From the NCBI GenBank assembly GCA_013204155.1, contig JABMOK010000090.1:14850-78849 (forward strand): 64,000 nt of DNA, read 5' to 3'. Positions 15,260 through 58,326 of this stretch are shown here, one piece after another (within the stretch, counting starts at the first letter, position 1; every line of letters begins with the position of its first letter). The position numbers and the translations under genes were made by a program. A model generated the notes under the pieces. The model was not told the origin of the DNA, did not search any database, and was given only the letters and a program-made list of their open reading frames with translations. The DNA is from Pseudohongiella sp. GTDB lineage: Bacteria; Pseudomonadota; Gammaproteobacteria; Pseudomonadales; Pseudohongiellaceae.

Positions 15260-15262
15260 TAA

Positions 15263-16210: not shown

Positions 16211-16215
16211 AATGT

Positions 16216-17661
16216 CTAATTGTCCCCTACAATCCAGGTATCTTTACTACCGCCACCCTGAGATGAATTAACAATATAAGAGCCTTTAACCATCGCGACT
16301 CGCGTCAGCCCGCCTGCGGTTACATAGGATTTATCGGCCTGCAAGACAAACGGTCGCAAATCTACATGTCTGGGCTCCACCGTCCTGTCGCATAATACGG
16401 GAACCGTGGACAATGAAATCAACGGCTGTGCCATATAATTTCTCGGATCAGCTTTAATCCTGCGGGCAAATTCCGCCAACTCTTTCTTGCTCGCCTGGGG
16501 CCCAATTAACATGCCGTAGCCCCCAGATTCATTGGCAGGCTTCACCACCAACTTATCGAGATTCTGCAATACATACTGCCGCTGCAGTTTGTCGATACAA
16601 AGAAAACTGGGGACATTGGGAAGAATAGGATCTTCACCCAAATAGTATTTAATGAACTGTGGAACATAGGTGTAAATAATTTTATCGTCGGCTACGCCAG
16701 CGCCTGGCGCATTTGCCAAGGCGACATTACCTTTGACCCAGGCTTTGAATAAACCACTGACTCCTAGCACTGAATCTTTGTTGAAAACCGACGGATCCAG
16801 AAATAAGTCATCGATGCGTCTATAGATGACATCTACCTGCGACAAGCCATCAATCGTTTTCATAAATACTTTGTCTTTCTCAACTATCAAGTCACTGCCT
16901 TCCACTAACTCTGCGCCCATTCTCTGCGCCAGATAAGAGTGCTCAAAATAGGCTGAATTAAAAACGCCCGGAGTAAGTACTGCCACCTCAGGATAGTCCG
17001 AGGGACGTGGGGAGATGGCGGCGAGGGTATCGAATAATTGATCTGGGTATTCGGTTATCGGTCGAATATTATAGTCATCTTCGAATAGCTCCGGAAATAT
17101 ACGCTTGGTTACTCTGCGATTCTCCAACATATAGGAGACACCAGATGGCACTCTCAAATTGTCTTCTAAAACGCAAAATTCTCCGCTCCCATCTTTGATC
17201 AAATCGGTGCCACAAATATGAGCCCATACATCAAATCGCGGCTTAATGCCCATACATTCTTTACGGAAATTACTCGAGTTGAGAATTAATTCTTTAGGGA
17301 TAATCTTGTCTTTAAAGATTTTTTGCTCATTATAAATATCGTGAATGAAGCAGTTTAATGCGCGCAATCTTTGTTGCAAACCCAGGCTGGTAGAATTCCA
17401 TTCCTTTTCTGCGATAATTCTCGGAATAATATCGAATGGCCATTCTCTATCGATGTTACCGGCATCGCTGTATACCGTGAAAGAAATTCCCATGGTTTTG
17501 ATAGCAAGCTCTGCCGCCAGCTTCTTTTGCAATAATTCTTCATGGGTAAGCGACTTAAGATGACTGGCCAATCGACGGGAAGGTTGGCGCGCATAACCAG
17601 GAGTGCTGATCATTTCGTCATAAAAGTTTCCCGGATTGTAATTTTTCCAGTTAACGCGCAT
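16216..17661 (-). CDS. circularly permuted type-2 ATP-grasp protein
   Basis: A 481-aa ORF whose N-terminal region, GISFTVYSDAGNIDREWPFDIIPRIIAEKEW, is typical of the family. It has the conserved pairing with an alpha-E gene. Confidence 0.85.
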   Translation of the reverse strand: MRVNWKNYNPGNFYDEMISTPGYARQPSRRLASHLKSLTHEELLQKKLAAELAIKTMGISFTVYSDAGNIDREWPFDIIPRIIAEKEWNSTSLGLQQRLRALNCFIHDIYNEQKIFKDKIIPKELILNSSNFRKECMGIKPRFDVWAHICGTDLIKDGSGEFCVLEDNLRVPSGVSYMLENRRVTKRIFPELFEDDYNIRPITEYPDQLFDTLAAISPRPSDYPEVAVLTPGVFNSAYFEHSYLAQRMGAELVEGSDLIVEKDKVFMKTIDGLSQVDVIYRRIDDLFLDPSVFNKDSVLGVSGLFKAWVKGNVALANAPGAGVADDKIIYTYVPQFIKYYLGEDPILPNVPSFLCIDKLQRQYVLQNLDKLVVKPANESGGYGMLIGPQASKKELAEFARRIKADPRNYMAQPLISLSTVPVLCDRTVEPRHVDLRPFVLQADKSYVTAGGLTRVAMVKGSYIVNSSQGGGSKDTWIVGDN

Positions 17662-21274: not shown

Positions 21275-22253
21275 ACTGCTTCATTAATTCATCACTGAGT
21301 TCTACATCGAGTGCTGCCAGAGATTCATCCAGTTGATCTGCTGTTCGCGCGCCGATGATTGTAGACGCCACAAAGTCAAAGTTCATACTCCAGGCTGTGG
21401 CTAGCGTAACAGGTGACATACCGGCTTCCTTCGCTATCTCCAGATATTTTGCCGTAGATGCCAAAGTCCCTTCATTTACAAAGCGACTCGACATTGCCCG
21501 CTGCCGTGGATTGTCAGCATTATTGTAATCTCCAAATCTGCTATTACTTGGGATTTCCGGCTGATTATATTTTCCGCTTAACACTCCTCCTCCAATTGGT
21601 GAGTACGGTAAAAGAGAGACGTGCTCCCTTCTACAAACATTCGCCAGCTCATCCATAAATCGACGATTAAGCAAAGAGAAGTTGTTTTGAATGGATTGAA
21701 ATTTTGCCAGGCCCTCATATTCAGCCACAGTATTTGCCTTCGTCAGGCCATAGGCATTTTCATTTGAGGTCCCCAGATAACGAACCTTGCCAGATTGCAC
21801 CAAACGATCCAGAGCCTCCATCGATTCATCGATCGGCACTACCGTGTCGGGCCAGTGCACCTGATACAAATCGATATACTCTGTCCCCAGCCTGCGCAAG
21901 GAGCCTTCCACTGCAGTTTCGATATGAAATCTGTCGACAGCGGTCAATCCGTGACGCACCGGGGGTACGAACCATCCGGAAGCGGCGCCAGCGACCTTGG
22001 TCGCAATAATCAATGAGTCACGCGGCTTGGTCTTAATCCATTCGCCAAATATTTGCTCTGTAACACCGACAGTCTCCGCATTAGGCGGCACAGGATAGAC
22101 TTCCGCCGTGTCGTAAAAATTAATGCCGCGCTCGTAGGCTTTTTCCAATATCTTGAATGACTCTTTCTTATCACTCCAGCTGCCGAAACTCATTGTACCC
22201 ATACAAATTGGGGTGACCCGCAAGCCGCTCTTGCCTATATAACGATATTCCAT
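21234..22253 (-). CDS. aldo/keto reductase (Tas-like)
   Basis: The start is moved to MEYRYIGKSGLRVTPICMGTM. It has AKR blocks INFYDTAEVY and IDLYQVHWPD and a C-terminus like that of Tas. Its 3' end overlaps the downstream nuclease start by 41 nt. Confidence 0.85.
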   Translation of the reverse strand: MEYRYIGKSGLRVTPICMGTMSFGSWSDKKESFKILEKAYERGINFYDTAEVYPVPPNAETVGVTEQIFGEWIKTKPRDSLIIATKVAGAASGWFVPPVRHGLTAVDRFHIETAVEGSLRRLGTEYIDLYQVHWPDTVVPIDESMEALDRLVQSGKVRYLGTSNENAYGLTKANTVAEYEGLAKFQSIQNNFSLLNRRFMDELANVCRREHVSLLPYSPIGGGVLSGKYNQPEIPSNSRFGDYNNADNPRQRAMSSRFVNEGTLASTAKYLEIAKEAGMSPVTLATAWSMNFDFVASTIIGARTADQLDESLAALDVELSDELMKQCDEVHSQILYPMG

Positions 22254-22324
22254 ACTTCTTCCTTCACTTCTTGTTAAAACGAAACTTGCTGTTGGCATTA
22301 AAGTTGGTATTTAACTTGTTACTG

Positions 22325-23419
22325 CTAAGCAAGTGGTTCGCAAATATCACCAAGATAGCCGCCGCCACCACAATAGCTGGCATCCTGAACCTGAATTCGA
22401 ATGCCATCCGGATCAGAAAAATACACTTCCGGCGTGCCTCCCTCAATGCCCCCTCTATTCGGCATGCGCATGCTTATCCAATGCACCAGAGGCGGTGTGT
22501 TACTGGCGCTCTCCCGGGCCGTGAAGCCGTAATCTTCCAGTTTTGTAATGATTGCATCGACATCAAAATCTTTGACACTAAGACATACGTGATCGATGCG
22601 GCCCGGCTGCGTCGGCGGCCCATCCTCGCTGCCACCCACATACATAAGAAATTGAATGCCATCACCGACACCGACTATTGGCGAGCCAGGACCCTGATAA
22701 GCCTGATAACTCTTACCCAAAATTCGAGTATAAAATTCATTGCCACGGGTGTTATTGGCGAGAAAATTAGTAAAATGACTTAGATCAATTGACTCAAACA
22801 GGCCTGCCGTCGGAGCGGGCTCGAGTCGTTCACACACATTGCCCAGTGGCCCGCTTCCGCCACAGTAATCCTCCGCCGATAATTGAAAGACCAGACCCTC
22901 GAGACCGGCAAAATATAAATCCTGGGTTCCAGCTACTGAACCACCGGCATCTTGACCGCGGTTGTCCACCCATGAGCGCATTGCCGAATCCAGTGCAGGC
23001 TGACCCGGTGCTGGCTTGGTACTGCGCGCAATACCAAAATCGTCCAATTGATCTCGAACGCTCTCTAACTCAAAATCTTCAACACTCAAACCGATATGAC
23101 TAATACCCGGCTGTTCGCCTGCACGGACCGGAGAAAGAGAAAAGAATCGTGGGCCGTCACCGATACGCAAACAGACCGTATCACCCTGTCGCGCCTGAAC
23201 CGCAGAGCCAAAGATGTCCTGATAGAACTTCAGCGAACGATCCATGTCCGAAACCCGCAGGCCGAAGCTATGTAATTTCCTAACCGCCACGGGATGGGTT
23301 GATTGCTGGGCGAATAAGCCAGGAGCAAATGCCAAGACAGGCAACGCTTTCAGTAGCTTGCGCCGGCTATGACTGATTGATTTAGTCGAAGCCACTAAAT
23401 CGTGATATTGGGATTTCAT
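22325..23419 (-). CDS. exported tandem VOC (glyoxalase/dioxygenase-fold) protein with a Tat-type signal
   Basis: The N-terminal twin-arginine-like motif is SRRKLLKALPVLAFAPGLFA. Repeated VOC modules follow (HSFGLRVSDMDRSLKFY, HIGLSVEDF, HVCLSVKDFD). Confidence 0.7.
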   Translation of the reverse strand: MKSQYHDLVASTKSISHSRRKLLKALPVLAFAPGLFAQQSTHPVAVRKLHSFGLRVSDMDRSLKFYQDIFGSAVQARQGDTVCLRIGDGPRFFSLSPVRAGEQPGISHIGLSVEDFELESVRDQLDDFGIARSTKPAPGQPALDSAMRSWVDNRGQDAGGSVAGTQDLYFAGLEGLVFQLSAEDYCGGSGPLGNVCERLEPAPTAGLFESIDLSHFTNFLANNTRGNEFYTRILGKSYQAYQGPGSPIVGVGDGIQFLMYVGGSEDGPPTQPGRIDHVCLSVKDFDVDAIITKLEDYGFTARESASNTPPLVHWISMRMPNRGGIEGGTPEVYFSDPDGIRIQVQDASYCGGGGYLGDICEPLA

Positions 23420-23491
23420 GGCGGCTGTCCTCGGGCCTGTTTAAGTCGGGACATCATAGCCAGAGTGCGGTACTAGCGTCTACCTTGAAGC

Positions 23492-23890
23492 CTACTTATT
23501 CTGCTCAATGCGCCCATTTTCAGCCTGCCATTGCTCCATGCCCCCCTGCAGATGGGCGACATTCTCGACACCCATGTTTTGCAATGTTTGCGCCGCCAGT
23601 GCTGAACGCCAACCCTTATTGCAATACAGAATAATTTCCTTTGCCTGATCGAATTCTGACCGATAATAGGGACTGTCGGGGTCAATCCAGAACTCGAGCA
23701 TGCCTCTGGGAATATGCAATGAGGCAGGAATCTTGCCTTCCCTCTTGACCTCTCGCACGTCCCTGAGATCGATCAGCAATAAACCCTCAGTTTGCGCCTG
23801 CAGCTTCAGTTCTACTTCTGCCGGGCTAAGGGATTTTACCTGACTCTCCGCCTCCGCGACTAACTGCCTGAAGCCCTTGCTCAATTCCAT
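23492..23890 (-). CDS. rhodanese-domain sulfurtransferase
   Basis: A 132-aa single rhodanese domain with the active-site loop YCNKGWRS. Confidence 0.8.
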   Translation of the reverse strand: MELSKGFRQLVAEAESQVKSLSPAEVELKLQAQTEGLLLIDLRDVREVKREGKIPASLHIPRGMLEFWIDPDSPYYRSEFDQAKEIILYCNKGWRSALAAQTLQNMGVENVAHLQGGMEQWQAENGRIEQNK

Positions 23891-24084
23891 GTTTTAATCC
23901 CTGCTGTTAGTCTTGCGCTACTGGTTTTGCGCGACTTCCTCGCCGGCGAAGGGTTCTTGCGCTCGGTGTCCGAAGAGGAAATTCATCACGCTGGGGCATC
24001 CTTCGTGACCGGCCTATTCATAGACAGGATCAGCGCTGTAATCCAGCCTGTGATCGATTGGCTCAGCCGCTCTGCCGGCCCTAA

Positions 24085-25155
24085 CTAACGGCGCGAAGAT
24101 TTAAGCAGAGCTCCACCGCCGGATACAACCGCGCCAAAAACATTGCCCGCTGAATCCACCGCAACCCCTTCCGGATTGGATCCTTCGGGATAGGCTAGCA
24201 CCGTGCCATCAATAAAATAGTCGACGATGCCATCCAGCAAACTGCCTACCCGGATACCCGCATGCCAACCAGGATTTCGAGTGTCATCAAACTCAGACTC
24301 CGAATCGGCAACGTAGATAGTGTCTTCGTCGGTAATATAAATACCGCTGGGTCGGCTAAAAGATTTGAATTCAGCAATATAATTACCGTCCAGATCGAAT
24401 ATTTGCAGTCGATTATTTCCTCGATCACCCACCACGAGTCTGTTGCGGGAATCGATGTCGAGCGCGTGAGGGGTTTTCATTTTACCCGCCGTTGAGCCCC
24501 AACCTCCCCAGTATTTGATCATATTGCCGTTACGATCGTATTTTACGATACGGGCAACCGTATCCGCCGTCGCATCCTCATTTTGACCACTGTGCCCATC
24601 ACCAACATAAATATTGCCGTCTGCATCGGTCACCACATCGCAGGGAGTTTCTAATAAGGCATCGGTGCCGTCGCCGGCTACGCCCGGTTGCCCAAGGGTC
24701 AGCAATACCTCCCCCTCAGGACTCAATTTATACACGGCATGCCCCATGCCACGGGTCGCAGGATTATCCGGGTCTGGGCCACGGGCATCGGTCACCCATA
24801 TATTGCCATCGCGATCAACATGCGGCCCGTGAGGGAAAAGCATCAGGCCGCCACCGATAGCGCTTACCACATTGCCATTTTGATCTATTTTTACTATTGG
24901 ATCGACGCTAGAACCAATACAGCTGTTACCGCCGCATCGATCGATAGCCCACAAATGATGACCATCGGGGTCCATATCGACACCGGCAGTAGAGCCCCAT
25001 TGCCGATCGCCTGGCAGCACAGCCCAGCCATCCTCTGTTGAAAATGGATTGGGGCGCTCATTAATGGGCTCTAATTGCGCAAATGCCACATTCACAGAGA
25101 GCATTGCCAGCAATAACCAGGCCGCTCGAGACGTATAGGTTTTGAAAATTATCAT
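24085..25155 (-). CDS. exported NHL-repeat six-bladed propeller, peptidyl-alpha-hydroxyglycine lyase (PAL)-like
   Basis: The start is moved to MIIFKTYTSRAAWLLLAMLSVNVAFA, a signal peptide. NHL repeats are present (GDRGNNRLQIFD and others). The blocks LFPHGPHVDRDGNIWVTDA, VGDGHSG, RIVKYD and TPHALDID are collinear with the PAL zinc/catalytic blocks as I recall them. Confidence 0.7.
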   Translation of the reverse strand: MIIFKTYTSRAAWLLLAMLSVNVAFAQLEPINERPNPFSTEDGWAVLPGDRQWGSTAGVDMDPDGHHLWAIDRCGGNSCIGSSVDPIVKIDQNGNVVSAIGGGLMLFPHGPHVDRDGNIWVTDARGPDPDNPATRGMGHAVYKLSPEGEVLLTLGQPGVAGDGTDALLETPCDVVTDADGNIYVGDGHSGQNEDATADTVARIVKYDRNGNMIKYWGGWGSTAGKMKTPHALDIDSRNRLVVGDRGNNRLQIFDLDGNYIAEFKSFSRPSGIYITDEDTIYVADSESEFDDTRNPGWHAGIRVGSLLDGIVDYFIDGTVLAYPEGSNPEGVAVDSAGNVFGAVVSGGGALLKSSRR

Positions 25156-25290
25156 GATCGATTCCTCTGCATAGACTTTGCCAGTGCTAATACCGCCACC
25201 GGCAATCATCGCCTTTGATGAATTGATTCAGGCTGTAGGGGATAGGATAGAATGGAAAGATTAGAACACAGAACTGACGAATGCAACGCG

Positions 25291-25382
25291 CCCACTTCTT
25301 TTATTGCAAAACCTACTCCTTTTATTGCAAAACCCACTTCTCTTATTGCAAAACCCACTTCTCTTATTGCAAAAGAAGTGGG
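25291..25382. repeat. four tandem 21-bp repeats capped by an inverted arm (terminator-derived array)
   Basis: Four copies of the CCCACTTCTCTTATTGCAAAA unit occupy 25291-25374 (copies 3-4 exact, copies 1-2 variant) and are followed by GAAGTGGG. On the minus strand the first unit reads CCCACTTCT-loop-AGAAGTGGG-TTTT, directly after the stop of the 25430-26428 gene. Confidence 0.9.
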
Positions 25383-25429
25383 CGCGAAAAGCAAGTCTGA
25401 GAAGGTGAAGCGCAGGAATTGCCGCTGTG

Positions 25430-26428
25430 CTATCGGGTCACCGTCACGTTGATGTTTTGATAAGTAAACATGGAGCCATCACTGGCTATACCCCGCAACA
25501 CATATTCACCGGGCTCATCAAAGGTCACCTCAGCAGTCCATCTACCATCTTCCGGCGGCATCGGGATTTCGAAAGGGGGCGACCAGGGGGAATTAGCGTA
25601 CATCCGTGTATCGGTATAGGTCTTGAACTGCGCTGGATTGAAGCTTGCCGATTCGGCTGGCCCGCGGTAGATAGTCCAGGAAAAGCGCAATCCGGGTCCA
25701 CTCATCGCAACGATTGAAGAAGGGGGCCGATAGATCTGGCCATTACTTGTCCTCGGTGCGGCTCTTCGAGCCGGGAGATTATCGGGATCGCTGGCTCTCA
25801 CCGCCAAACTCAGAGGCTGGCCTACTCGAACGCTACGAAAACTTTCACCTTCAACCCGCAATTCCGGGGAAATATTGGTGCGTAGAGAATCGCTCAGGCT
25901 GCCGAAATTACCCCCGACCTCGGTGGAAATAACCTGCGGATCGATACGATAATCGGGCTTCAGCGTTCCATAGGCACGGTTTACCTGACCCTGAGTTTTC
26001 AGGGTCCAGACCATTTCTTCATCGCCGAAATCTGCCGGCACATCAATGGTAAACAGAAACGGATTACGGCGAGGATAGAAATGCGTCGGCTGGCCCTGAT
26101 CGGCATCGGAAAAATCAAAACCATCTTTCGCCAGGTCGTCCAGCTCTCCAGCACCCACATTGGAAAAATAATTATCCGCACCAACAGAGATATCGAACTG
26201 TTGTTCCCAGTTGGTATTCATATAGCCAAAGAACAACTTATAAGTGCCATCATCATTGGGCCACCAACCTTCGTAGGCTGGCGAGGTAATCTGCTCGCGT
26301 AACTGCATGAGCATTGTTTCAGCGACAACCATCTGAGAGCTAAAAATCAGCGCCAGGGTGATTGACGAGGCTGTCTTGAAATTTATCATGCTACCGAGTA
26401 GCGAGAATCGTGTATTTCCAGCTTTCAT
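25430..26428 (-). CDS. hypothetical exported protein, partner of the heme/copper monooxygenase-like gene
   Basis: It has a signal peptide and probably a C-terminal Ig/PKD-like beta-sandwich (GRWTAEVTFDEPGEYVLRGIASDG). The ATG at 26428 lies 2 nt after the upstream stop; the alternative TTG at 26434 overlaps it. Confidence 0.6.
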   Translation of the reverse strand: MKAGNTRFSLLGSMINFKTASSITLALIFSSQMVVAETMLMQLREQITSPAYEGWWPNDDGTYKLFFGYMNTNWEQQFDISVGADNYFSNVGAGELDDLAKDGFDFSDADQGQPTHFYPRRNPFLFTIDVPADFGDEEMVWTLKTQGQVNRAYGTLKPDYRIDPQVISTEVGGNFGSLSDSLRTNISPELRVEGESFRSVRVGQPLSLAVRASDPDNLPARRAAPRTSNGQIYRPPSSIVAMSGPGLRFSWTIYRGPAESASFNPAQFKTYTDTRMYANSPWSPPFEIPMPPEDGRWTAEVTFDEPGEYVLRGIASDGSMFTYQNINVTVTR

Positions 26429-26430
26429 TT

Positions 26431-27897
26431 TCAATCATTCCCTTGAGCGAGTGTCTGATCTGTTGATACGGGCGCCCAGCACAGGGGACAACTCACATCG
26501 TAGTCATTTCTGTCTTTCATATTGGCTCGCCTGACGGCCATCTCCGCCTGAAACTGCTCTTCAGTAAGCTCCACCGAATAGCCCAGATCGATAAACATAT
26601 TAGAGACAGAACGACGACCACCGCCCGCCCAATTTCTTGAATCTGCAAGATTTGGATTGGCTTTGGTGGTATCAAGATAGCCTATGGTGTGCAATATGGT
26701 GCCCTTTGGTAGCAGAGGCGCGGCGTCGTCTTCATACACATATTGCTTCACCCAGTTGTGATCATATCCGACACAACTCAAGGTGAACTGGTTGTGTCCC
26801 CAGATCGCTTCCATACACATGCGCACGCCAGGAGCATGCAGATGGGGTTCGAAGGCAATTATTTTGGTGTGTTCCTGTAGTACCACGTAATTATGGAATT
26901 CCTGATTGGCTTTATTGGGAACCACATCGATGTCGATGCCGTTTCCCGTGCGTGGTCCACGCTTGCCATATTCAGGCTCATAGCCTACGGGAAAGAATTT
27001 AATGCCAAATTCTACGTAGCCGGTGGTGTCACGGCCATTGGAATGCATATGGGTTGCACCCAGGCTCAGCGCAGAATTTGCCGGCATCAAGCGTCCTGCC
27101 TTCTCGGGAAAAATATCCGCATTGCGACCCACTTCATGGATTGGCCAGCTGGTGATATTGTCCACGACTTCTCTGCCATCTTCGCTCAAGGTACCGCTGG
27201 TGTAGGTTAGATGGTGAACGATGTAGCGCCCGCCTACTGTGCCAGAGCTGGCATCGGCAGGTATATCGTTGATTTCTCGCACCTGAATCGCCTGCACATA
27301 GCGATCTTCGGTCAAGCCAGTCGGGACCAGACCAATATCGCCCCACCAGTCCGGACCCACGGCAGGTCGGGAAACGTCAGCAGAACGGAGGATTAAATCT
27401 GGCTCTCCAATGGTCCACTCAATGCCTTCGTCAAAACTAAGCAAAGGCGGCTCGTTATCTGGATTACCGCGTGGTGCGCCGTTGTCCGCCCAAGCCTGAA
27501 TCAGCGCCAGATCGATGTCATCCAGCGAATAGTCATCCTTAAAGCGGGTGATACCAATGTGTTTCTCGGCATAAAAAGGCGGCATGGCACCCATGCGATC
27601 TCTGATAGCCGTACGATACTTAATCACTGGCGCCCATGGGCGAACCTGATCGTAAGTCATCAGGGACATCGGCCCGCCGCCACCTGGTCGGTGACAGTTT
27701 TGGCAACTGCGTTGCAGAATCGGCGCGATATGATCGGCAAAGGTGACGCTGGCTGGATCTATATCGAAATCGGTGGCGTCATAGTAATGCGGCTGGTGAT
27801 TAGCAACACTGGCATCGTGAGACTGAGCAACAGCGATCAGCGGTGTAAGCAGCAGCGCGAGAGTCGAACAGATCGTGAGAAAAAATCTGGCTTGCAT
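26431..27897 (-). CDS. exported mono-heme c (CxxCH) domain fused to a PHM/DBH-like copper monooxygenase-type domain
   Basis: It has a signal peptide and FADHIAPILQRSCQNCH (heme motif at 27691-27705). Candidate copper ligands are HH at residues 228-229, HMH at 283-285, HLH at 352-354 and Met434, in the same order as the PHM CuH and CuM ligands. Confidence 0.65.
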   Translation of the reverse strand: MQARFFLTICSTLALLLTPLIAVAQSHDASVANHQPHYYDATDFDIDPASVTFADHIAPILQRSCQNCHRPGGGGPMSLMTYDQVRPWAPVIKYRTAIRDRMGAMPPFYAEKHIGITRFKDDYSLDDIDLALIQAWADNGAPRGNPDNEPPLLSFDEGIEWTIGEPDLILRSADVSRPAVGPDWWGDIGLVPTGLTEDRYVQAIQVREINDIPADASSGTVGGRYIVHHLTYTSGTLSEDGREVVDNITSWPIHEVGRNADIFPEKAGRLMPANSALSLGATHMHSNGRDTTGYVEFGIKFFPVGYEPEYGKRGPRTGNGIDIDVVPNKANQEFHNYVVLQEHTKIIAFEPHLHAPGVRMCMEAIWGHNQFTLSCVGYDHNWVKQYVYEDDAAPLLPKGTILHTIGYLDTTKANPNLADSRNWAGGGRRSVSNMFIDLGYSVELTEEQFQAEMAVRRANMKDRNDYDVSCPLCWAPVSTDQTLAQGND

Positions 27898-28073
27898 TGC
27901 AGTTTCCCCTTGGTTATTTGGTTAATATCGAAAGTTTGTCATCGGCCCAGTCTATCCGAATTCAGACCAGGAATGTATCTGGATAGTACCGAAAAAGCAC
28001 TAAAAAGCACAGAAAAGACTGCCCGTAACAAATAGTCACAATGTCGCCGCTGGCGGCCTTATCAGCCCCATTA

Positions 28074-28162
28074 ACACCACTATCAACACCAACTACCAGC
28101 ACCACTATCAGCACCACTATCAACACCAACTATCAGCACCAACTATCAACACCAACTACAGC
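28074..28162. repeat. about seven degenerate 12-13-bp tandem repeats
   Basis: The CACCA(A)CTATCAR unit repeats head to tail in the spacer between the PQQ dehydrogenase stop (28235) and the downstream monooxygenase-like start (27897). Confidence 0.85.
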
Positions 28163-28234
28163 GCTCAGAACGGCAGAAATTCTGTGGGATATCCTTCCAC
28201 AAGCTGAGGAAGAAGCGGCTTTACCCGAGAAGTT

Positions 28235-29884
28235 TTACTCCTCGGGTAAAGCAAAGGCGGTAAGGGTTGTCCCGGAAGGAATCAGCACGTATTGGCGGCC
28301 ATCTAATATGTGGGTCATCGGTGCGGCTCCCCAGATTCTGGAGCCGGTTTGGTAATGCCAGAGGTTTTCACCGGACTCGGCATCAAACGCCATCAAATTC
28401 CCTTCATGATCGCCGGCAAATACCAGTCCTGAAGCAGTTGTCATCACCCCACCAAAGCTGGGCGAAGGATAGGTAAATTCCCAGCGCAACTCGCCGGTAT
28501 GGACATCCAGCGCCCGAAGTGCACCTGAGCCCTGTTCATTGTCAATAAATACCACACCACCAAATGAGGCCTGACCGGGTGCCAGTTGTGGCTCTTCAGG
28601 CACAAAGGTCGCACAGGTTTCCCGTGCCGTCAGAAAGAACAAATCAAGTTCGGGATAGAAAGAAGGCGGCATAAAATTGGTGCCGCCCCAGGGATCCGGC
28701 AAACAGCCCTTGCTACCATCATTCAACACTATTGGCCGCCCGTCACTGCCGATCTCCCGCGCCCAGGTAGTGCCGGTAAAAGGTTTACCTAATAGCAACT
28801 CACCGGTGACCCTGTCCAGCACATAAAAGAAACCATTGCGATTCGCCTGCATAACAACCGCTCTTGGCTGACCCTGCCACTCGATTTCCGCCAGCACCGG
28901 TATCTGATTCGAGTCCCAATCGTGTAAATCATGTGGGGTAAATTGATAGTGCCAACGCAGTTGGCCAGTAGCGGCCTCTAGCGCCACGATCGAATTGGAA
29001 TAAAGATTGTCACCTGGGCGAGTAGCGCCGAAATAATCGGGATTGGGATTACCCACTCCCCAATAGATCAAATCCAGCTCTGGATCATAGCTGCCGTTCA
29101 TCCAGGAACCGCCACCCCCTCTGGCGAGAATATCGGCATCGTCAGGCCAGGTTTCGCTGCCTGGCTCGCCGGGCCCGGGTATTGTATTAAAGCGCCATAT
29201 TCGCTCGCCGGTTACGGGGTCAAAGGCATCGATAAATCCCCGTGTCGCATACTCGCCACCGGAAATACCCACGATAACCTTGCCATCAATAACCAGCGGC
29301 GCCATAGTCGCCGCGTAACCTACTCGATAATCTGCTAACACCACGTCCCAAAGAATTTCCCCGCTTCTGCGATCGAGTGACAGCAGGTGCGCATCCAGGG
29401 TTACCATGAAAAGGCTATTGCCCAGCATACCAAAGCCACGATTTACCGGGGAGCTGGCGCCATAGGTCAGATCGCTGGGCAGGTTGCGTCGATATTGCCA
29501 GAAGCTGCGACCGGTTTTGGCATCGATGGCCCAGGCATAATTGTTCGAGCCGGTGACATACAGAACACCTTCATCAACCAGAGGAGTAGTCTCAAACCCC
29601 CGACCTCGGGTGGTGGTACCTGTTTGAAATGTCCAGACAGGCCTGAGCTGCTGGACATTTTCTGGCGTAATTTGAGCCAGTGGACTGTGTCGCTTACTGC
29701 TGTAATCGCCCGAGTAAGTGAGCCAGCGTGATGAATCGGCAAAGCCCTGCAGAATATCTTCATAGCTTGGTCCGGAAGAGACAGACCCGGAATTGGCTTG
29801 ACCCACTACGGCCAGAGGCAGACTCATCAAAACCAGACCAGCGAGCATTCGATTAAGCGGTTTACTGAAGTTTATTGTCTGCAT
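28235..29884 (-). CDS. exported PQQ-dependent dehydrogenase, methanol/ethanol-family eight-bladed propeller
   Basis: It has a signal peptide and the blocks WLTYSGDYSSKRHSPL, GFETTPLV, ISGGEYATRGF and FTPHDLHDWDSNQ. The vicinal Cys-Cys before VNRG is absent (GASSPVNRG). Confidence 0.85.
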   Translation of the reverse strand: MQTINFSKPLNRMLAGLVLMSLPLAVVGQANSGSVSSGPSYEDILQGFADSSRWLTYSGDYSSKRHSPLAQITPENVQQLRPVWTFQTGTTTRGRGFETTPLVDEGVLYVTGSNNYAWAIDAKTGRSFWQYRRNLPSDLTYGASSPVNRGFGMLGNSLFMVTLDAHLLSLDRRSGEILWDVVLADYRVGYAATMAPLVIDGKVIVGISGGEYATRGFIDAFDPVTGERIWRFNTIPGPGEPGSETWPDDADILARGGGGSWMNGSYDPELDLIYWGVGNPNPDYFGATRPGDNLYSNSIVALEAATGQLRWHYQFTPHDLHDWDSNQIPVLAEIEWQGQPRAVVMQANRNGFFYVLDRVTGELLLGKPFTGTTWAREIGSDGRPIVLNDGSKGCLPDPWGGTNFMPPSFYPELDLFFLTARETCATFVPEEPQLAPGQASFGGVVFIDNEQGSGALRALDVHTGELRWEFTYPSPSFGGVMTTASGLVFAGDHEGNLMAFDAESGENLWHYQTGSRIWGAAPMTHILDGRQYVLIPSGTTLTAFALPEE

Positions 29885-29916
29885 AGTTTACGTATCTGCT
29901 TCGGTTGTTTTGTTTA

Positions 29917-30729
29917 TCAGCGCTGCTGATCTAGAAAGCCTAATATATCGTTTAGCTCGGAATCGCTCAGCTCGGCAATGGAGAAAGACGGCATCAGTGA
30001 GTTGGGTTCCCGATTCATCTGGCTAAGCTCAGATTTCATAAATCCGCGTAATTGCTGATTACTGTCCATTATCTGAATTGAAAAGGCATCTTCGCTTTTG
30101 ATTACCCCTTGCACCCGTCCCTGATTAACGCTTAAGAATGAAATCGGCTTATAGCCCCTGCCGATGGAAGCACTCGGTTCTCTTATGGAGCTGGCTATTG
30201 AATCCTGAGATCGACGCGCAGTAACCCCCGCAAGATTTGGTCCCAGCGCACTGCCTGCTCCCCCGACGCGATGACACCCGGCACAATTCGCATTAAACAG
30301 TCGTTGGCCGGTATCTGCATCGCCGGTAAATGGACGGGTTGCACCACCTGTCGCGATACTACGCAAGTAACTTACCAGCATCCAGATTTCTGTATCGGGA
30401 AAGCCGTGAGCAGGCATGATGCTGCCCGGAATTCCATTCTGGATAGTGGCGAAAACCGAGCCATCGGTATTGCCGTCCTGAGTCCAGATCAATGTCAGAT
30501 CGGGCGCCTCGATGCTGGCAATGCCTTTCGCATCCGCGCCGTGACAGGTGGCGCATTGGGCCCTGAATATCACGCCGCCAGCACCCGCGGCTCTGGGATC
30601 GCTGGCGAGCGGATTGTTTTGCTGGGCTTGTGCTACAGACAGGCCGCCGAGTAACAGCAGAGAGACGAGCGCGCAAACGCTGATTCTCATAACGCCGAAG
30701 TTAGTAACAAGATAATTTTTGGGTTTCAT
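29917..30729 (-). CDS. exported di-heme c-type cytochrome
   Basis: It has two CxxCH motifs (CATCHGADAKG and CAGCHRVGGAG). The second domain plus C-terminal extension resembles the heme-binding domain often attached to periplasmic dehydrogenases (GPNLAGV...SIREPSASI...SLMPSF). It lies 32 nt upstream of the PQQ dehydrogenase. Confidence 0.85.
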   Translation of the reverse strand: MKPKNYLVTNFGVMRISVCALVSLLLLGGLSVAQAQQNNPLASDPRAAGAGGVIFRAQCATCHGADAKGIASIEAPDLTLIWTQDGNTDGSVFATIQNGIPGSIMPAHGFPDTEIWMLVSYLRSIATGGATRPFTGDADTGQRLFNANCAGCHRVGGAGSALGPNLAGVTARRSQDSIASSIREPSASIGRGYKPISFLSVNQGRVQGVIKSEDAFSIQIMDSNQQLRGFMKSELSQMNREPNSLMPSFSIAELSDSELNDILGFLDQQR

Positions 30730-30967
30730 TATTGCGGCTTATTATTCTTATTGGGTATCACTCAAGTCTCGCCGCAGAATAACACCATCCCAAACTCCTA
30801 ACCACCCTTGCATTATTGACTCATGTTTAGCTGCTGGCCACCGTTAAACTTGCGGGAAAGGGCAGTAGATCGCATTTCATACTGAGACGCCGTCATTTAT
30901 TGACATTACCCGGCCGTTGGTTTATCTCTGTCGTTACGCATTTATAAAATCAATAGTGGAGAGCGTG

Positions 30968-31429
30968 ATGGACAATAACAACAGTAAGAAGGCGAAGTCG
31001 TCTGCCTGGCAGATACTCACTTCCGTAAGTGTGGCAATGGTACTTGGCTGGCTGGTACTGGGAACCCAATCCAATCCTTCATCAGCGCAGCAGAGCAATT
31101 TCATGGGAGGTTCTCCCAAGGTTGCAAACAGCGATGATGTTAGAACTCTGCGCTTGATCTTCCCTGCCGGTGTGCGCTCCAATTGGCACAGCCATTCCTG
31201 GGGACAGCTGTTAATGGTAGAGGAAGGCCGAGGCCTGACTCAGGATCGTGGCGGTCCACTGCTGGAGATGCATCCTGGCGAGCCATGGTGGACTCCGTCT
31301 GGCAGAGAACACTGGCACGGCGCCTTCCCTTCTGAAGATGTCTTGCAAATGACTATTTATGAAGGTGATGTGGAATGGCTGGAGGGGGTTTCAGACGCTG
31401 TCTATAACGCCACTCCGCGCCGACCCTGA
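30968..31429 (+). CDS. cupin-domain protein with an N-terminal membrane anchor or signal
   Basis: The start is moved to the ATG at 30968, behind GGAG. The cupin motifs are NWHSHSWGQLLMVEEG and HWHGA. Confidence 0.65.
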   Translation: MDNNNSKKAKSSAWQILTSVSVAMVLGWLVLGTQSNPSSAQQSNFMGGSPKVANSDDVRTLRLIFPAGVRSNWHSHSWGQLLMVEEGRGLTQDRGGPLLEMHPGEPWWTPSGREHWHGAFPSEDVLQMTIYEGDVEWLEGVSDAVYNATPRRP

Positions 31430-31476
31430 TCCAGCCCTGATCTTGTCAATCCACAAGAGCAAGACTTAAGCCTGAA

Positions 31477-31515
31477 TAAAAAAGGTGACCCGGTTTCCCG
31501 TGTCACCTTTTTTTA
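31477..31515 (+). terminator. rho-independent terminator after the cupin gene
   Basis: AAAAAAGGTGAC, then a loop, then GTCACCTTTTTTT. Confidence 0.75.
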
Positions 31516-31659
31516 TATCCGGCTCACCCCTCGCCACGAGCATCCGCTATTCAAGACCCATAACCTGCCTGCAAACAGGGCTTGGTGACCTTCCGCGCTG
31601 ATAGACCTATACTGATCGACCTGAATTGTATTGATTCTTGGCATCAGGGGGGGGTTGCA

Positions 31660-32874
31660 ATGAAATTCTACAAACGCGCAGCAAAAATAATTGGAATATT
31701 AGCTATTGGCTTAATGATCGCTGGATGCGGAGCGGAAGATCCCGCCATGCCAGAGCTAAGTTTCGAAGAATCACTACAGCAGCAACTGATTCAGGCCCGG
31801 CCTGGCGATGTCATTGAAATCCCGGCCGGCACCCATGAAATGACTCGCAGCCTTTCGCTCACTGTGCCTGGTGTCACGATTAGAGGCGCCGGCATGGATC
31901 GCTCCATTTTGTCATTCAAAAATCAAATTCAGGGCGCGGAGGGCTTGCTGGTAAGCGCGGATGATTTTGTAATTGAAGATCTGGCAATCGAAGACACTGT
32001 TGGCGATGCATTAAAAGTTAACGAAAGTGACAACGTTACTATTCGTCGAGTTCGCGCAGAATGGACAGGTGGCGCATTAACCACTAATGGCGCCTACGGC
32101 ATCTACCCCGTTCAATGCAATAAGGTATTAATTGACGATGTCCTGGTAATAGGCGCATCCGATGCCGGCATCTATGTCGGTCAATCCAGTCAGATTATCG
32201 TGCGAAATTCTCGTGTCGAATACAACGTTGCCGGCATAGAGATCGAAAACTCTACCTTCGCCGATGTGCATGACAATATTGCCACCAATAACACTGGCGG
32301 GATTCTTATTTTCGACTTGCCCAATCTGCCAGTGCAGGGAGGACGCAACACCCGGGTGTTCGATAATCAGATATTTGCCAATAATACTGCCAACTTTGCC
32401 CCCGAAGGCAATATCGTTGCAACAGTGCCAACGGGCACAGGACTGATGATTTTAGCCAATGACAATATTGAAGTATTCGGCAATGACTTCATTGATAACG
32501 ACAGCGTCAACGTTCTCATCGTCAGCTATTTGATTACCGCACTTCCTATCGATGATCCTGACTATGATCCCTTCCCGGAATCTATTTTCATCCATAACAA
32601 TCAATTTAGCGGCGGCGGAGAAACGCCCGATTCAGAACCACTGGCGCTGCTGCAGTCAGCTACGGCGCAATCCATTCCAGACGTTGTATGGGACGGAATC
32701 CTTGTTGACGGAAAACAGGCCAAGGATATATTGTGCCTGGCAGAGAATGGCGAAGTGACGTTTGTTAATCTGGATGCCAGCAATGGTTTCGCTGCACCCT
32801 CATTTGATACCGATGCTCACCGATGTTCACTTCCACGCCTGTCAGTAATTTCATTGAGTCCGGCGGCACAATGA
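31660..32874 (+). CDS. parallel beta-helix repeat lipoprotein
   Basis: The start is moved to MKFYKRAAKIIGILAIGLMIAGCG, which has a lipobox. Repetitive beta-helix turns are present (NVAGIEIENS, NNTGGILIFD, NDSVNVLIVS). Confidence 0.75.
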   Translation: MKFYKRAAKIIGILAIGLMIAGCGAEDPAMPELSFEESLQQQLIQARPGDVIEIPAGTHEMTRSLSLTVPGVTIRGAGMDRSILSFKNQIQGAEGLLVSADDFVIEDLAIEDTVGDALKVNESDNVTIRRVRAEWTGGALTTNGAYGIYPVQCNKVLIDDVLVIGASDAGIYVGQSSQIIVRNSRVEYNVAGIEIENSTFADVHDNIATNNTGGILIFDLPNLPVQGGRNTRVFDNQIFANNTANFAPEGNIVATVPTGTGLMILANDNIEVFGNDFIDNDSVNVLIVSYLITALPIDDPDYDPFPESIFIHNNQFSGGGETPDSEPLALLQSATAQSIPDVVWDGILVDGKQAKDILCLAENGEVTFVNLDASNGFAAPSFDTDAHRCSLPRLSVISLSPAAQ

Positions 32875-33968
32875 TACGCGCACAATTGCGCTTACTGTTT
32901 GTGAGCGTAGTGCTCTCCCTGGTTTTTGCCTGCACCGATTCAGGTCCGGTTTTTCATGCCCAAGACAGGCCGCTACGCCTGTCTGAGTGGAATCTCTATT
33001 CACTTAGCGCCGATGCCTTAATCCCTAGCGAATCCAGCCTGGTTTTCCGTCCTGCCAACCCGCTTTTTACCGACTATGCGCACAAGTTACGCAGCCTGTG
33101 GATTCCTGCGAATACACAGGCGCATTTAGCAGAGGGTGAAATTGACTACCCAGTTGGCACGGTGCTGAGCAAGACCTTTTATTATCCAAAGAATACGCAA
33201 GGTGCGATTGAAAAACGCGAAGACCCAGGCCTTGAGAAAATCGATCTCCAGTACAACCAGCTCATCGAGACCAGACTATTGGTACGCAAGGAAATGGGCT
33301 GGGATGCTTTCCCCTATGTCTGGAATGACGAACAAACTGAGGCCTTCTTGCGTGTCGCCGGTGCAAGCAAATCAATTCAGCTAACGAGCGAGCAAGGCAC
33401 TCTCGATTTTGTCTATTTCGTTCCCAATGAAAATCAGTGCGCGGGCTGTCATACCACATCTCATCCCGATGGAGACATGCATCCGCTAGGCGCGATAGCC
33501 AGTCAATTAAGTTCGAGCGTTTTCCCTCGAGAAGGATTAATGGAAATTCAGACCGAAATATTGCGGGCGCGAGGTTGGCTAGATGAAATACCTATTCGAA
33601 TGGAAAGTAAATCCTGGCGCGACGAAAGCTATTCTATCGAGGATCGCGCCCTGGCCTATCTCAACATACATTGCGGTCACTGTCATAACCCCAATGGCGC
33701 CGCCGATACTTCCGGCCTGATTCTCGATGGTTCTCACGCAATCAGAATCAACATGGGAGTATGCAAACCCCCGGTTGCCGCTGGCGGTGGATCTGGAGAC
33801 CTGCTATACGGTATCGTGCCAGGAGCGCCGGAGCAGTCGATTTTGCTGTACCGAATGCAATCGGCCAAGCCTGATGAAATGATGCCCGAACTCGGCAGGT
33901 CACTGGTACACGTGGAGGGGGTAGAGCTAATTGGGCGCTGGATATCCGAAATGCCAGGAAGCTGTTAG
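32871..33968 (+). CDS. di-heme c-type cytochrome lipoprotein (SO_2930/HNE_0200-like)
   Basis: The ATG at 32871 overlaps the upstream stop as ATGA. It has the lipobox LVFAC and the heme motifs CAGCH and CGHCHNPNG. Pairing with a beta-helix protein matches a conserved gene pair that I recall. Confidence 0.7.
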   Translation: MIRAQLRLLFVSVVLSLVFACTDSGPVFHAQDRPLRLSEWNLYSLSADALIPSESSLVFRPANPLFTDYAHKLRSLWIPANTQAHLAEGEIDYPVGTVLSKTFYYPKNTQGAIEKREDPGLEKIDLQYNQLIETRLLVRKEMGWDAFPYVWNDEQTEAFLRVAGASKSIQLTSEQGTLDFVYFVPNENQCAGCHTTSHPDGDMHPLGAIASQLSSSVFPREGLMEIQTEILRARGWLDEIPIRMESKSWRDESYSIEDRALAYLNIHCGHCHNPNGAADTSGLILDGSHAIRINMGVCKPPVAAGGGSGDLLYGIVPGAPEQSILLYRMQSAKPDEMMPELGRSLVHVEGVELIGRWISEMPGSC

Positions 33969-56940: not shown

Positions 56941-58326
56941 ATGAAATCCCGTACTCAACCTCTTTCTATGCGTCTGCCCACGCTGCTTCTCGGCCTGTCC
57001 GCCGCGATCGGCCTGAGCTCTGCTCAAGCACAGGGTGCAGCGCCTACTTTTTACGCCGATGCCCTGCCAGTTTTTCAGAAAAATTGTGTGGCCTGTCATC
57101 AGCCAGATGGACCCGATGTGGGTGGCATATCCGCCCCAATGCCGTTAAATGATTATGCGCAAGCGAAGATATGGGCGCCTCTCATCAAGAACGCCCTGAT
57201 CACCGGCTATATGCCACCCTGGGGTGCCCACGAACGGCATCGCGGCGAATTCAAAGATGAACGCTATATCGATGACGACGAACTTAATTTACTGGTGGCC
57301 TGGGTAGACGGCGGTGCTTTGGAAGGCAATCCTGCTGACGCGGCCTCCCACACTCTGGCGGCAAGCGATGGTACTACGGAACTACCGAATTCCGGTTGGT
57401 GGATAGGCGACCCCGATCTGGTGGTGCAGTTTGACCGCCCAGTTCACGTCGAAGACGACGTCATGGACTGGCAGCCCACGATACAGATGCCGGTACCTCC
57501 CGGCGCACACGATGAGCCAAAATGGGTTGCAAGCGCAGAACTGGATCCCGGTGGTCCCTGGGTTCACCATATCGTTTCCAGTCATATGGGTGTGGGTGTT
57601 CCCGGTCGCGGTCCCTTCTCCTATCCTGAAGGTTGGGGCGTGTTATTGCCGGAAGACCCCTTTATTACCGTCAATATGCACTATCACAAGAATCCCGGCG
57701 AAGGTACGGCGGTAAATGATCTAACCCGTGCCGGTTTCGTATTTTATAAGGACGGCGCCGTGATCGATCACGTTGTTGAAACCAATTTATTACCGAACAG
57801 TGGCTGGACAATTCCGCCAGGTGATCCGAATTACAAGGTCACCAATACCCATGACATCGACGAAGATATCTTTTTGTTATCGATGGGTCCCCACATGCAC
57901 TATCGCGGCAAGGCCATGCGCTATGAAGTGGAATACCCCGACGGCGAAAGAGAGGTATTGCTGTGGGTTCCCAAATACGATTTTAACTGGCAATTCCTCT
58001 ACGAATACAAGGAACCAAAATTTATCCCCGCCGGTTCAACTCTGCACATGAGCTGGTGGTTCGATAATTCCAAGGAGAACCGCTGGAATCCTGATCCCAT
58101 GGCAGCCGTTGAGTATGGGCCTACTACCACGGATGAAATGGCCAATGCGCGGATCTACTTTGCCCCCACCAAGAAGCGCGGCATCGTCGTCGGCGGAGAG
58201 ATTCCCGGGGATGTATTAGCGGCGGCAAGAGATGACGACGAGAGACGTCGTAGCCGTGCAAATCTTCTGGATCAGAGCAAAGACGATTTGAACTGGCTAA
58301 CTGAAGATGGCGTAAACGGTCGCTAA
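56941..58326 (+). CDS. exported mono-heme c (CxxCH) domain fused to a PHM/DBH-like copper monooxygenase-type domain, second paralogue
   Basis: It has a signal peptide and FYADALPVFQKNCVACH (heme motif at 57085-57099). Candidate copper ligands are HH at residues 209-210, HYH at 247-249, HMH at 318-320 and TTDEM with Met400. It shares YDFNW/YDHNW and other blocks with the 26431-27897 protein. Confidence 0.65.
   Translation: MKSRTQPLSMRLPTLLLGLSAAIGLSSAQAQGAAPTFYADALPVFQKNCVACHQPDGPDVGGISAPMPLNDYAQAKIWAPLIKNALITGYMPPWGAHERHRGEFKDERYIDDDELNLLVAWVDGGALEGNPADAASHTLAASDGTTELPNSGWWIGDPDLVVQFDRPVHVEDDVMDWQPTIQMPVPPGAHDEPKWVASAELDPGGPWVHHIVSSHMGVGVPGRGPFSYPEGWGVLLPEDPFITVNMHYHKNPGEGTAVNDLTRAGFVFYKDGAVIDHVVETNLLPNSGWTIPPGDPNYKVTNTHDIDEDIFLLSMGPHMHYRGKAMRYEVEYPDGEREVLLWVPKYDFNWQFLYEYKEPKFIPAGSTLHMSWWFDNSKENRWNPDPMAAVEYGPTTTDEMANARIYFAPTKKRGIVVGGEIPGDVLAAARDDDERRRSRANLLDQSKDDLNWLTEDGVNGR

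Follow-up and report, generated by a model that had tools for sequence, protein, structure and literature searches.

The 64,000-nucleotide stretch of Pseudohongiella sp. DNA analyzed here (assembly GCA_013204155.1, contig JABMOK010000090.1, positions 14,850 to 78,849; the whole stretch is called the window below) carries on its minus strand a gene for an exported 488-aa protein (26431..27897). The protein appears to join a c-type cytochrome domain to a core of the kind found in peptidylglycine α-hydroxylating monooxygenase (PHM) and dopamine β-hydroxylase (DBH). The next gene, whose ATG lies 2 nt past the stop codon of the 488-aa gene, encodes an exported 332-aa protein (25430..26428, minus strand). 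It is followed, after a spacer of 274 bp, by the gene for an exported six-bladed NHL propeller (24085..25155, or to 25209 from an upstream ATG, minus strand). Upstream of the 488-aa gene lie the genes of a PQQ (pyrroloquinoline quinone)-dependent dehydrogenase and a diheme cytochrome c. Sec-type signal sequences are readable on the 488-aa, 332-aa, NHL, cytochrome and PQQ proteins. An earlier note on this DNA had singled out the 488-aa protein and the NHL propeller as a pair comparable with PHM and peptidyl-α-hydroxyglycine α-amidating lyase (PAL), the two halves of the peptide-amidating enzyme PAM. Every open reading frame and motif that it listed was found in place, including the CxxCH, HH (228–229), HMH (283–285) and HLH (352–354) motifs and Met434 of the 488-aa protein. 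The NHL gene, which it had placed three genes downstream, is the second one.

The 488-aa protein is identical to NQV69737.1, deposited as "MAG: cytochrome c [Pseudohongiella sp.]". It begins with a Sec signal peptide, followed by the c-type cytochrome domain at residues ~50–150 and by a PHM/DBH-like two-domain copper core at residues ~160–460. The segment FADHIAPILQRSCQNCH (residues 53–69) contains the sole CxxCH motif of the protein at positions 65–69. The heme-c attachment site, Cys65, Cys68 and His69 (27691..27705, minus strand), is supported by the family alignment and by Pfam. The CxxCH motif and Met105, which is part of an MPP motif, are invariant in the family alignment, and Met105 is the likely axial heme ligand. 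Conservation was counted in 43 full-length representatives at 30–55% identity, and the heme motif is kept in 37–40 of them. The Pfam family Cytochrome_CBB3 matches the protein with an E-value of 7e-5 and 23.5 bits, which is under the curated cut-off of 27. The three features of a c-type cytochrome, the CxxCH motif, the distal methionine and a readable signal peptide, are all present. At the other end of the protein, a CPLC motif (GCPLCWAP, with CPLC at residues 470–473) is invariant in close orthologs and missing from most distant members of the family. This tail could handle copper or be redox-active.

The fold of the protein was assessed with an AlphaFold2 model made from 30 homologs (pLDDT 73.9, pTM 0.73). 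When this model was compared with all PDB chains by Foldseek, the best 30 matches were all DBH or PHM, with E-values of 1e-7 to 1e-4, a probability of 1.00 and target-normalised TM-scores of 0.42–0.53. The best match is human DBH (4zel, E 1.1e-7) and the approximately 29 others are PHM entries. The alignments extend over about 310–340 columns on targets of about 305 residues, which is approximately the whole PHM core. The PHM/DBH fold proposed in the earlier note is thus borne out by the model.

To place the copper ligands, the rat PHM core sequence was taken from the PDB and the family profile was aligned with it by hhalign. The alignment scored 23.5, compared to 14.7 ± 2.4 (maximum 21.9) for 40 shuffles. 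In the register obtained, His228-His229 (27211..27216, minus strand) correspond to the CuH ligands His107 and His108 of PHM (IVHHLTY aligned with TVHHMLL), and His283 in the HMH motif (27043..27051, minus strand) corresponds to the third CuH ligand, His172. His352-x-His354 (26836..26844, minus strand) correspond to the CuM ligands His242 and His244 (EPHLHAPG aligned with RVHTHHLG). Met434 (26596..26598, minus strand) is placed on the CuM ligand Met314 by hhalign at low mact and by the family alignment. The motif around it reads SNM in the window protein, DEM in distant members and SDEM in PHM. The gaps between His283 and His352 and between His354 and Met434 are 69 and 80 residues, as had been noted earlier, and their PHM equivalents, checked on the PDB sequence, are 70 and 70. 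Among the 43 representatives, His228 and His229 are kept in 41–42, His283 in 40, His352 in 39, His354 in 38 and Met434 in 30, with a gap at the last position in 6. The second histidine of the HMH motif, His285, is variable (31 of 43). Unlike the six ligand-equivalent residues, His254, His343 and His380 are not conserved. This predicted six-ligand motif pattern exceeds chance. Furthermore, the Pfam families Cu2_monoox_C (PF03712) and Cu2_monooxygen (PF01082) match 7 and 4 of 30 family members, with best E-values of 1.7e-5 and 0.0071, all below threshold.

Several observations have to be weighed against the assignment of this fold. The direct sequence methods gave no link to PHM, which made the fold comparison and the profile–profile alignment necessary. 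The Pfam scan of the window proteins returned no Cu2_monoox match for the 488-aa protein, the NCBIfam scan gave no match for it, and phmmer against the PDB yielded spurious galectin matches only. The family HMM searched against the PDB reached no PHM and retrieved only proteins with heme motifs. The hhalign probability of the family profile against rat PHM is low, at 2.6–7%. The model is of moderate quality, with stretches of low confidence just before the HH motif and before Met434. The TM-scores are modest and the root-mean-square deviation from the PHM/DBH structures is 7–9 Å, a value that in the model fits a different angle between the domains. The Cu2_monoox profile searches suggested earlier thus gave a divided answer. 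They are positive, below threshold, for distant members and for a second paralog in the window (56941..58326, plus strand; Cu2_monoox_C, E 0.0011, 18.9 bits, cut-off 23), and negative for the 488-aa protein itself. Since Foldseek, hhalign, the conservation counts and the Pfam links to relatives agree, we conclude that the 488-aa protein consists of a c-type heme domain and a modelled fold of the PHM/DBH class with both predicted copper sites (His228/His229/His283 and His352/His354/Met434). The public annotation of the protein, which is simply "cytochrome c", would suit a non-catalytic cytochrome whose β-sandwich part binds or shuttles copper or docks to a partner. This is highly improbable, as both predicted copper sites of the catalytic class are under strong purifying selection across phyla, with hundreds of clusters at 66–91% identity, and the full two-domain, six-ligand arrangement would be needless for a chaperone.

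PHM, DBH and tyramine β-monooxygenase have been studied as eukaryotic, ascorbate-driven enzymes. The 488-aa model has the same two β-sandwich domains as PHM (rat PAM core; 1phm, 1opm, 1sdw) and the same six ligands, similarly spaced and in the PHM order (CuH: HH...H; CuM: HxH...M). Both proteins are secreted and extracytoplasmic, the export of the 488-aa protein being read from its signal sequence. The sequence identity between them is about 11–12%. Unlike PHM, the 488-aa protein is bacterial, does not keep the disulfide pattern, has an N-terminal c-type heme domain that presumably replaces free ascorbate as the reductant, and comes with the 332-aa partner, to which it is sometimes fused. The residues with which PHM binds the C-terminal carboxylate and the backbone of its substrate also differ. 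By hhalign and the family alignment, R240 is replaced by Glu350 (Gln in distant members), N316 by Ile436 (Ile or Phe) and Y318 by Leu438 (Leu or Trp). The three positions adjoin ligand motifs of secure register. With these residues replaced, a peptidyl-glycine substrate is unlikely, and the glycine-extended peptide that the earlier note had considered as substrate is weakened as a candidate. The 488-aa protein thus shares the predicted copper sites of PHM, yet it is no PHM ortholog.

The most constant neighbour of the 488-aa gene is the gene of the 332-aa protein. The gene neighbourhoods of 86 loci were surveyed by searching their six-frame open reading frames with the proteins of the window. 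In a de novo clustering of the neighbouring frames, used for ranking only, overlaps between frames of the six-frame translation joined the monooxygenase family to that of the partner. A homolog of the 332-aa protein lies directly downstream of the monooxygenase in about 80 of the 86 loci. Some genomes have two or three tandem monooxygenase/332-aa pairs (L016, L017, L042). The two proteins are also found fused, with the monooxygenase first in P0144 and P0149 and with the partner first in P0156 and P0153. Because the fusions occur in both orders, there is strong evidence from gene architecture that the 332-aa protein would be a physical subunit of the monooxygenase. The earlier note had treated it as a bystander; with its presence in about 80 of 86 loci and its fusions in both orders, it is instead the constant partner. 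The protein belongs to no Pfam family and is predicted to consist of two β-sandwich domains of the Ig/PKD-like type. Since its AlphaFold2 model is poor (pLDDT 61) and Foldseek returns generic tandem Ig domains only, no function is assigned to it. Polar and aromatic residues make up most of its conserved positions, among which no metal site is obvious.

Extra β-sandwich modules are likewise joined to the copper core in the group of DBH (4zel), MOXD and tyramine β-monooxygenase. In DBH this module is a DOMON domain. Its counterpart here would be the 332-aa subunit, which in some relatives is fused N- or C-terminally. Unlike in DBH, no DOMON domain was detected, the AlphaFold2 model of the 332-aa protein being too poor for a DOMON test. 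As a further difference, the heme domain of the 488-aa protein is similar to a class I cytochrome c, and sequence searches of Pfam and the PDB with the 488-aa protein and its family gave no sign of a DBH dimerisation domain.

The relation of the NHL propeller to PAL was examined in a similar way. The protein matches Pfam NHL with an E-value of 3e-19 and carries the blocks LFPHG, VGDGHSG, RIVKYD, TPHALDI and GDRGNNRLQIF in the order reported earlier. Their collinearity with PAL, itself a six-bladed NHL propeller (3fvz), and the replacement of Tyr654 by His and of His786 by Glu were confirmed by BLASTP and MAFFT against the rat sequence. BLASTP gives 31% identity over 196 aa and three blades (E 4e-20). 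When the NHL family profile was searched against the PDB, PAL was the sole structure with one long collinear match (residues 86–271, 186 residues, E 1e-31). NHL domains of the TRIM type score higher with the profile, but they match one blade, repeated. Asked whether the propeller is PAL-like or generic, as had been proposed, the search therefore points to PAL, the only solved structure matching collinearly at length. All 17 sequences of an NHL alignment keep the equivalents of His585, His690 and Arg706. Each has His in place of Tyr654 and Glu in place of His786, Asp787 of the calcium site is Gly or Phe, and the Arg533 segment of PAL is missing. With an invariant Glu at His786, the set of PAL zinc ligands (His585, His690, His786) is incomplete. 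The Tyr654/Arg706 pair is not found in the NHL protein, and Asp-Arg at the Arg706 position is common in NHL repeats generally. By its sequence, the NHL protein is thus PAL-related, with an altered yet conserved set of His/His/Glu, His and Arg, and it is no PAL by the defining residues.

The genomic linkage between the propeller and the monooxygenase is loose. Only six loci, all from related gammaproteobacteria, have a strong NHL ortholog at most 10 kb from the monooxygenase. The two genes are adjacent in the window and in L007, and 4–9 kb apart in L010, L011, L057 and L090, with a TAXI-TRAP transporter in between in L090. Weaker relatives are about 7 kb off in L003, L020 and L037. The NHL family is found in 11 of the 86 loci and is absent from most. 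When the search was started from NHL homologs instead, the monooxygenase lay nearby in one of three cases (L090, not L087 or L088). No monooxygenase–NHL fusion was seen among the longer relatives inspected, in contrast to the fusions with the 332-aa protein. Unlike PAL in PAM, the NHL protein is unfused to the monooxygenase. The expectation of co-occurrence that accompanied the earlier proposal thus holds for the 332-aa partner, whereas for the NHL gene co-occurrence is weak and mostly lineage-specific. In the Pseudohongiella-type locus, the NHL gene probably has an accessory role and is not one of the core partners.

These results bear directly on the idea that the 488-aa enzyme α-hydroxylates a glycine-extended peptide or N-acylglycine and that the propeller cleaves the resulting carbinolamide. 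It is favored by the PHM fold and ligands of the 488-aa protein, by the similarity of the propeller to rat PAL with its invariant His585, His690 and Arg706 equivalents, by the invariance of the substituted His and Glu throughout the bacterial NHL family, by the unique collinear match to PAL, and by the occurrence of the NHL family within 10 kb of the monooxygenase in several loci, which is above expectation for a rare gene. Against it, the PHM carboxylate-binding residues are not conserved and PAL Tyr654, His786 and Asp787 are replaced. Most loci have no NHL gene within 10 kb, including those of the close orthologs L001, L002, L005, L008 and L012, and in L001 the NHL position is taken by an unrelated 345-aa gene. 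The strong cases all come from related gammaproteobacteria, so that the synteny may be inherited and not selected, NHL homologs occur in L087 and L088 with no monooxygenase nearby, and fusions are common only with the 332-aa protein. We therefore consider this pairing distinctly unlikely. Of the earlier proposal, the PHM/DBH core and the collinearity with PAL have stood, while the peptidyl-glycine substrate and the linkage to the NHL gene are weakened.

A different role for the propeller is that of an ordinary periplasmic metal-dependent hydrolase unlinked to the copper enzyme, for instance a lactonase acting on the products of PQQ dehydrogenases for sugars and alcohols, of which the region has many. 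Weak Pfam matches to SGL (SMP-30/gluconolactonase) and to strictosidine-synthase-like proteins point this way, as do source annotations such as "sugar lactone lactonase YvrE", the presence in the window of two PQQ dehydrogenases of the GSDH type (six-bladed, soluble; 38330–39487, plus strand, and 49780–50997, minus strand) besides the eight-bladed one, the gene's own upstream spacer of 274 bp and its occurrence elsewhere without the monooxygenase. The SGL match, however, is sub-threshold and spans only about 25 residues, and the best multi-blade similarity is to PAL. Lactonases of the SMP30 and DFPase types have Glu/Asn/Asp metal sites, from which the His/His/Glu/His/Arg set of the propeller differs. 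An unlinked hydrolase is possible, though in our view rather unlikely.

Within the spacer in front of the NHL gene, a 21-bp unit (TTTTGCAATAARAGRAGTRGG, minus strand) is repeated four times in perfect register (25291–25374). The tandem repeat is unique in the window, where none is expected by chance, and it was not found in any of the 90 related loci searched. Near the NHL homolog in L088, a pair of genes for proteins of 524 and 336 aa was considered as a second module and rejected, as the proteins are unrelated and pilin-like.

The genes upstream of the 488-aa gene, to which the earlier note gave no weight, are linked to it across three phyla. The first (28235..29884, minus strand) encodes a PQQ-dependent alcohol dehydrogenase of the methanol/ethanol family (Pfam PQQ, 2e-94), which passes TIGR03075 with 510 bits against a cut-off of 480. 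Its score with TIGR04528, "acido-empty-quinoprotein group A", is 528 bits, under the cut-off of 650. In the PDB search its closest solved relatives are the quinoprotein ethanol dehydrogenases 6zcv and 6zcw. Its segment HDWDSNQ aligns with WDFDGVN of 6zcv and contains the D-x-D motif, which we take as a marker of lanthanide-dependent enzymes of the XoxF/PedH type. Located 32 nt upstream of the dehydrogenase gene is that of an exported diheme c-type cytochrome (29917..30729, minus strand; Pfam Cytochrom_C and Cytochrome_CBB3; TIGR02603), a candidate electron relay. A c-type cytochrome gene directly upstream of the dehydrogenase is also a feature of the lanthanide-dependent PedH/PedF-type alcohol dehydrogenase. 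The locus differs from PedH/PedF in that its cytochrome is a diheme protein and that a predicted copper monooxygenase is encoded by the genes that follow.

The diheme cytochrome and the PQQ dehydrogenase co-occur across the surveyed loci. In about 14 of the 21 informative loci with close orthologs (>700 bits), the pair is found nearby. It is adjacent in the window, L001–L009, L011–L013, L021, L025, L057 and L090, which belong to Gammaproteobacteria, Gemmatimonadota (L003, L013) and Acidobacteriota (L002, L005, L021, L025). Eight-bladed PQQ dehydrogenases occur in 29 of the 86 loci and those of the GSDH type in 9.

We propose, and regard as fairly probable on the grounds of sequence and model, that the 488-aa protein is a relative of the PHM/DBH enzymes that acts in the periplasm and needs no ascorbate, a heme-fed, O2-activating hydroxylase that would act together with the 332-aa subunit. 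The fused heme would take electrons singly from periplasmic cytochromes and pass them to the His3 (CuH-like) copper, thereby replacing ascorbate. The His2Met (CuM-like) copper would activate O2 and hydroxylate a C-H bond of a substrate that is probably other than a glycine-extended peptide. The 332-aa β-sandwich protein would form a two-subunit unit with the 488-aa protein, perhaps binding the substrate or serving as a scaffold. The PedH-like PQQ dehydrogenase and the diheme cytochrome c encoded next to the module are its probable working partners in this lineage and among the close orthologs from Gemmatimonadota and Acidobacteriota. The dehydrogenase might oxidise the hydroxylated product, or its electrons might return through cytochromes to the monooxygenase; both could hold. 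A parallel to such an electron return, used here as an analogy for the operon logic, is the coupling that has been proposed between methanol dehydrogenase and particulate methane monooxygenase.

The copper core might also perform other chemistry, as an oxidase, a peroxidase-like enzyme or a reductase that handles O2, peroxide or a small oxidant, or oxidises thiols or metals, in a protective or respiratory role. Periplasmic copper reductases and oxidases typically have a cytochrome c fused to them, and close orthologs of the 488-aa protein carry the C-terminal CPLC motif. The relative P0215 (1251 aa), obtained in the search of representatives described below, joins two copies of the module with other domains in the order AhpC/TSA, cytochrome c/copper core, thioredoxin-like, cytochrome c/copper core. 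Fusions of this type in some members of the family hint at peroxide or thiol chemistry over C-H hydroxylation. The same hint comes from the gene adjoining the second paralog (56179–56715, minus strand), whose product looks, by sequence motif alone, like a Prx5-type peroxiredoxin. Both observations count against the hydroxylase proposed above, and so does the absence of the PQQ dehydrogenase/cytochrome linkage from about one third of the close orthologs and from most distant paralogs. As the linkage is missing in many loci, the dehydrogenase and the cytochrome cannot be a general requirement. On the other side, the pair of a His3 and a His2Met site is the signature of the hydroxylating class of PHM, DBH and tyramine β-monooxygenase, and we know of no copper reductase in which it occurs. 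In addition, PQQ alcohol and sugar dehydrogenases are strongly linked to the module, which fits the oxidation of organic substrates better. An oxidase or reductase is thus unlikely, and hydroxylation by the heme-fed copper core is the reading that we retain.

The second heme-c/copper monooxygenase paralog of the window (56941..58326, plus strand) has 461 aa and shows all heme and copper motifs, with 28% identity to the 488-aa protein over 398 aa (BLASTP, E 3e-28). Downstream of it, a gene at 58372–59367 (plus strand) encodes an exported protein of 331 aa, which belongs to no Pfam family and has no similarity to the 332-aa partner. Further on, at 59476–61497 (minus strand), a NosR/NirI-like membrane protein with FMN_bind and Fer4_5 domains is encoded. 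A homolog of the 331-aa protein in L001 (18013–19050, 192 bits) is the 345-aa gene unrelated to NHL that occupies the NHL position, just upstream of the rhodanese, VOC and aldo-keto reductase genes. Another homolog in L088 (20075–21007, 270 bits) lies 9 kb from the NHL homolog. The 331-aa family may provide these loci with an alternative accessory protein.

Further genes surround the module. A small exported cupin (30917..31429, plus strand; Pfam Cupin_2) is transcribed divergently. Cupin genes are found in 17 of the 86 loci, mostly directly upstream and on the opposite strand. Past the NHL gene, the minus-strand run continues with the genes of a rhodanese, a two-domain VOC/glyoxalase protein with a twin-arginine signal and an aldo-keto reductase. 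A scan of positions 22000–31600 for promoters and terminators gave counts equal to those of shuffled sequence. Beyond the cupin gene, the region 31582–33968 (plus strand) encodes a parallel β-helix protein (TIGR03805, 417 bits; weak similarity to NosD) and then a diheme cytochrome c of the SO2930 family (TIGR03806, 324 bits). This pair is kept beside the module in the gammaproteobacterial loci L007, L008, L011, L012 and L057. The window also encodes a YHYH protein (42610–43767) and a tannase/feruloyl esterase (45561–47156), and it is unusually rich in periplasmic oxidoreductases. On the other side of the module, at 14261–17661 (minus strand), lies a conserved set of three genes for a circularly permuted ATP-grasp protein, an Alpha-E domain protein and a putative zinc peptidase (Peptidase_Mx), which is syntenic with L090.

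The family to which the 488-aa protein belongs is large. One search with the protein retrieved 6,495 proteins at E ≤ 0.001, the best 120 of which are 66–91% identical to it and are named "cytochrome c" or "hypothetical protein". An exhaustive search of representatives at 50% identity gave 9,255 clusters at E ≤ 0.001, 3,974 at 1e-10 and 316 at 1e-30. Among these relatives, P0261 (1064 aa) contains two cytochrome c/copper cores and EF-hand motifs. When one genome was scanned for each species, more than 567 loci turned up, the 80 best of which all come from metagenome-assembled genomes and belong to Gammaproteobacteria (Pseudohongiellaceae), Longimicrobiales, Gemmatimonadales, Vicinamibacterales, Bryobacteraceae and Acidimicrobiia. 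The family is common in uncultured Gemmatimonadota, Vicinamibacterales and Bryobacteraceae and in marine Pseudohongiellaceae.

No account of a bacterial PHM/DBH homolog with a fused heme c, or of its gene module, was found in the literature, the coverage of which was incomplete, so that this is absence of evidence only. Term searches gave no mention of prokaryotic homologs in a review on PHM/DBH chemistry from 2025 or in one on PAM evolution from 2019. Automated structure-based annotations may already flag the copper-core domain. The enzyme class as such is known. What appears new is its presence in bacteria, together with the heme donor fused to it, an obligate second subunit and the linkage to PQQ dehydrogenases.

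In a further-reaching and clearly more tentative version of the proposal, the 488-aa protein would be the first bacterial, ascorbate-free member of the PHM/DBH class, in which the c-type heme feeds CuH, the β-sandwich subunit presents the substrate and a closed periplasmic loop is formed with the lanthanide-type PQQ dehydrogenase and the diheme cytochrome. If this is true, the newly formed alcohol would be oxidised by the dehydrogenase and its two electrons would flow back to the monooxygenase. Overall, the loop would perform the reaction R-H + O2 → R=O + H2O, carried out in many soil and marine bacteria without a cytoplasmic reductant. The loop would be a soluble counterpart of the debated electron return from methanol dehydrogenase to particulate methane monooxygenase. 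A testable pathway is suggested by the recurrent linkage to PQQ dehydrogenases, which are probably of the lanthanide type.

The electron path between the two distant copper sites of PHM/DBH-class enzymes is still debated. A bacterial version, whose expression in bacteria is probably feasible, would extend the class to prokaryotes, and its covalently bound heme donor, which is visible by spectroscopy, would allow inter-copper electron transfer to be studied directly. Since a large family is annotated merely as "cytochrome c" or "hypothetical", a sizeable and unrecognised capacity for O2-dependent periplasmic oxidation in soil and ocean may be hidden.

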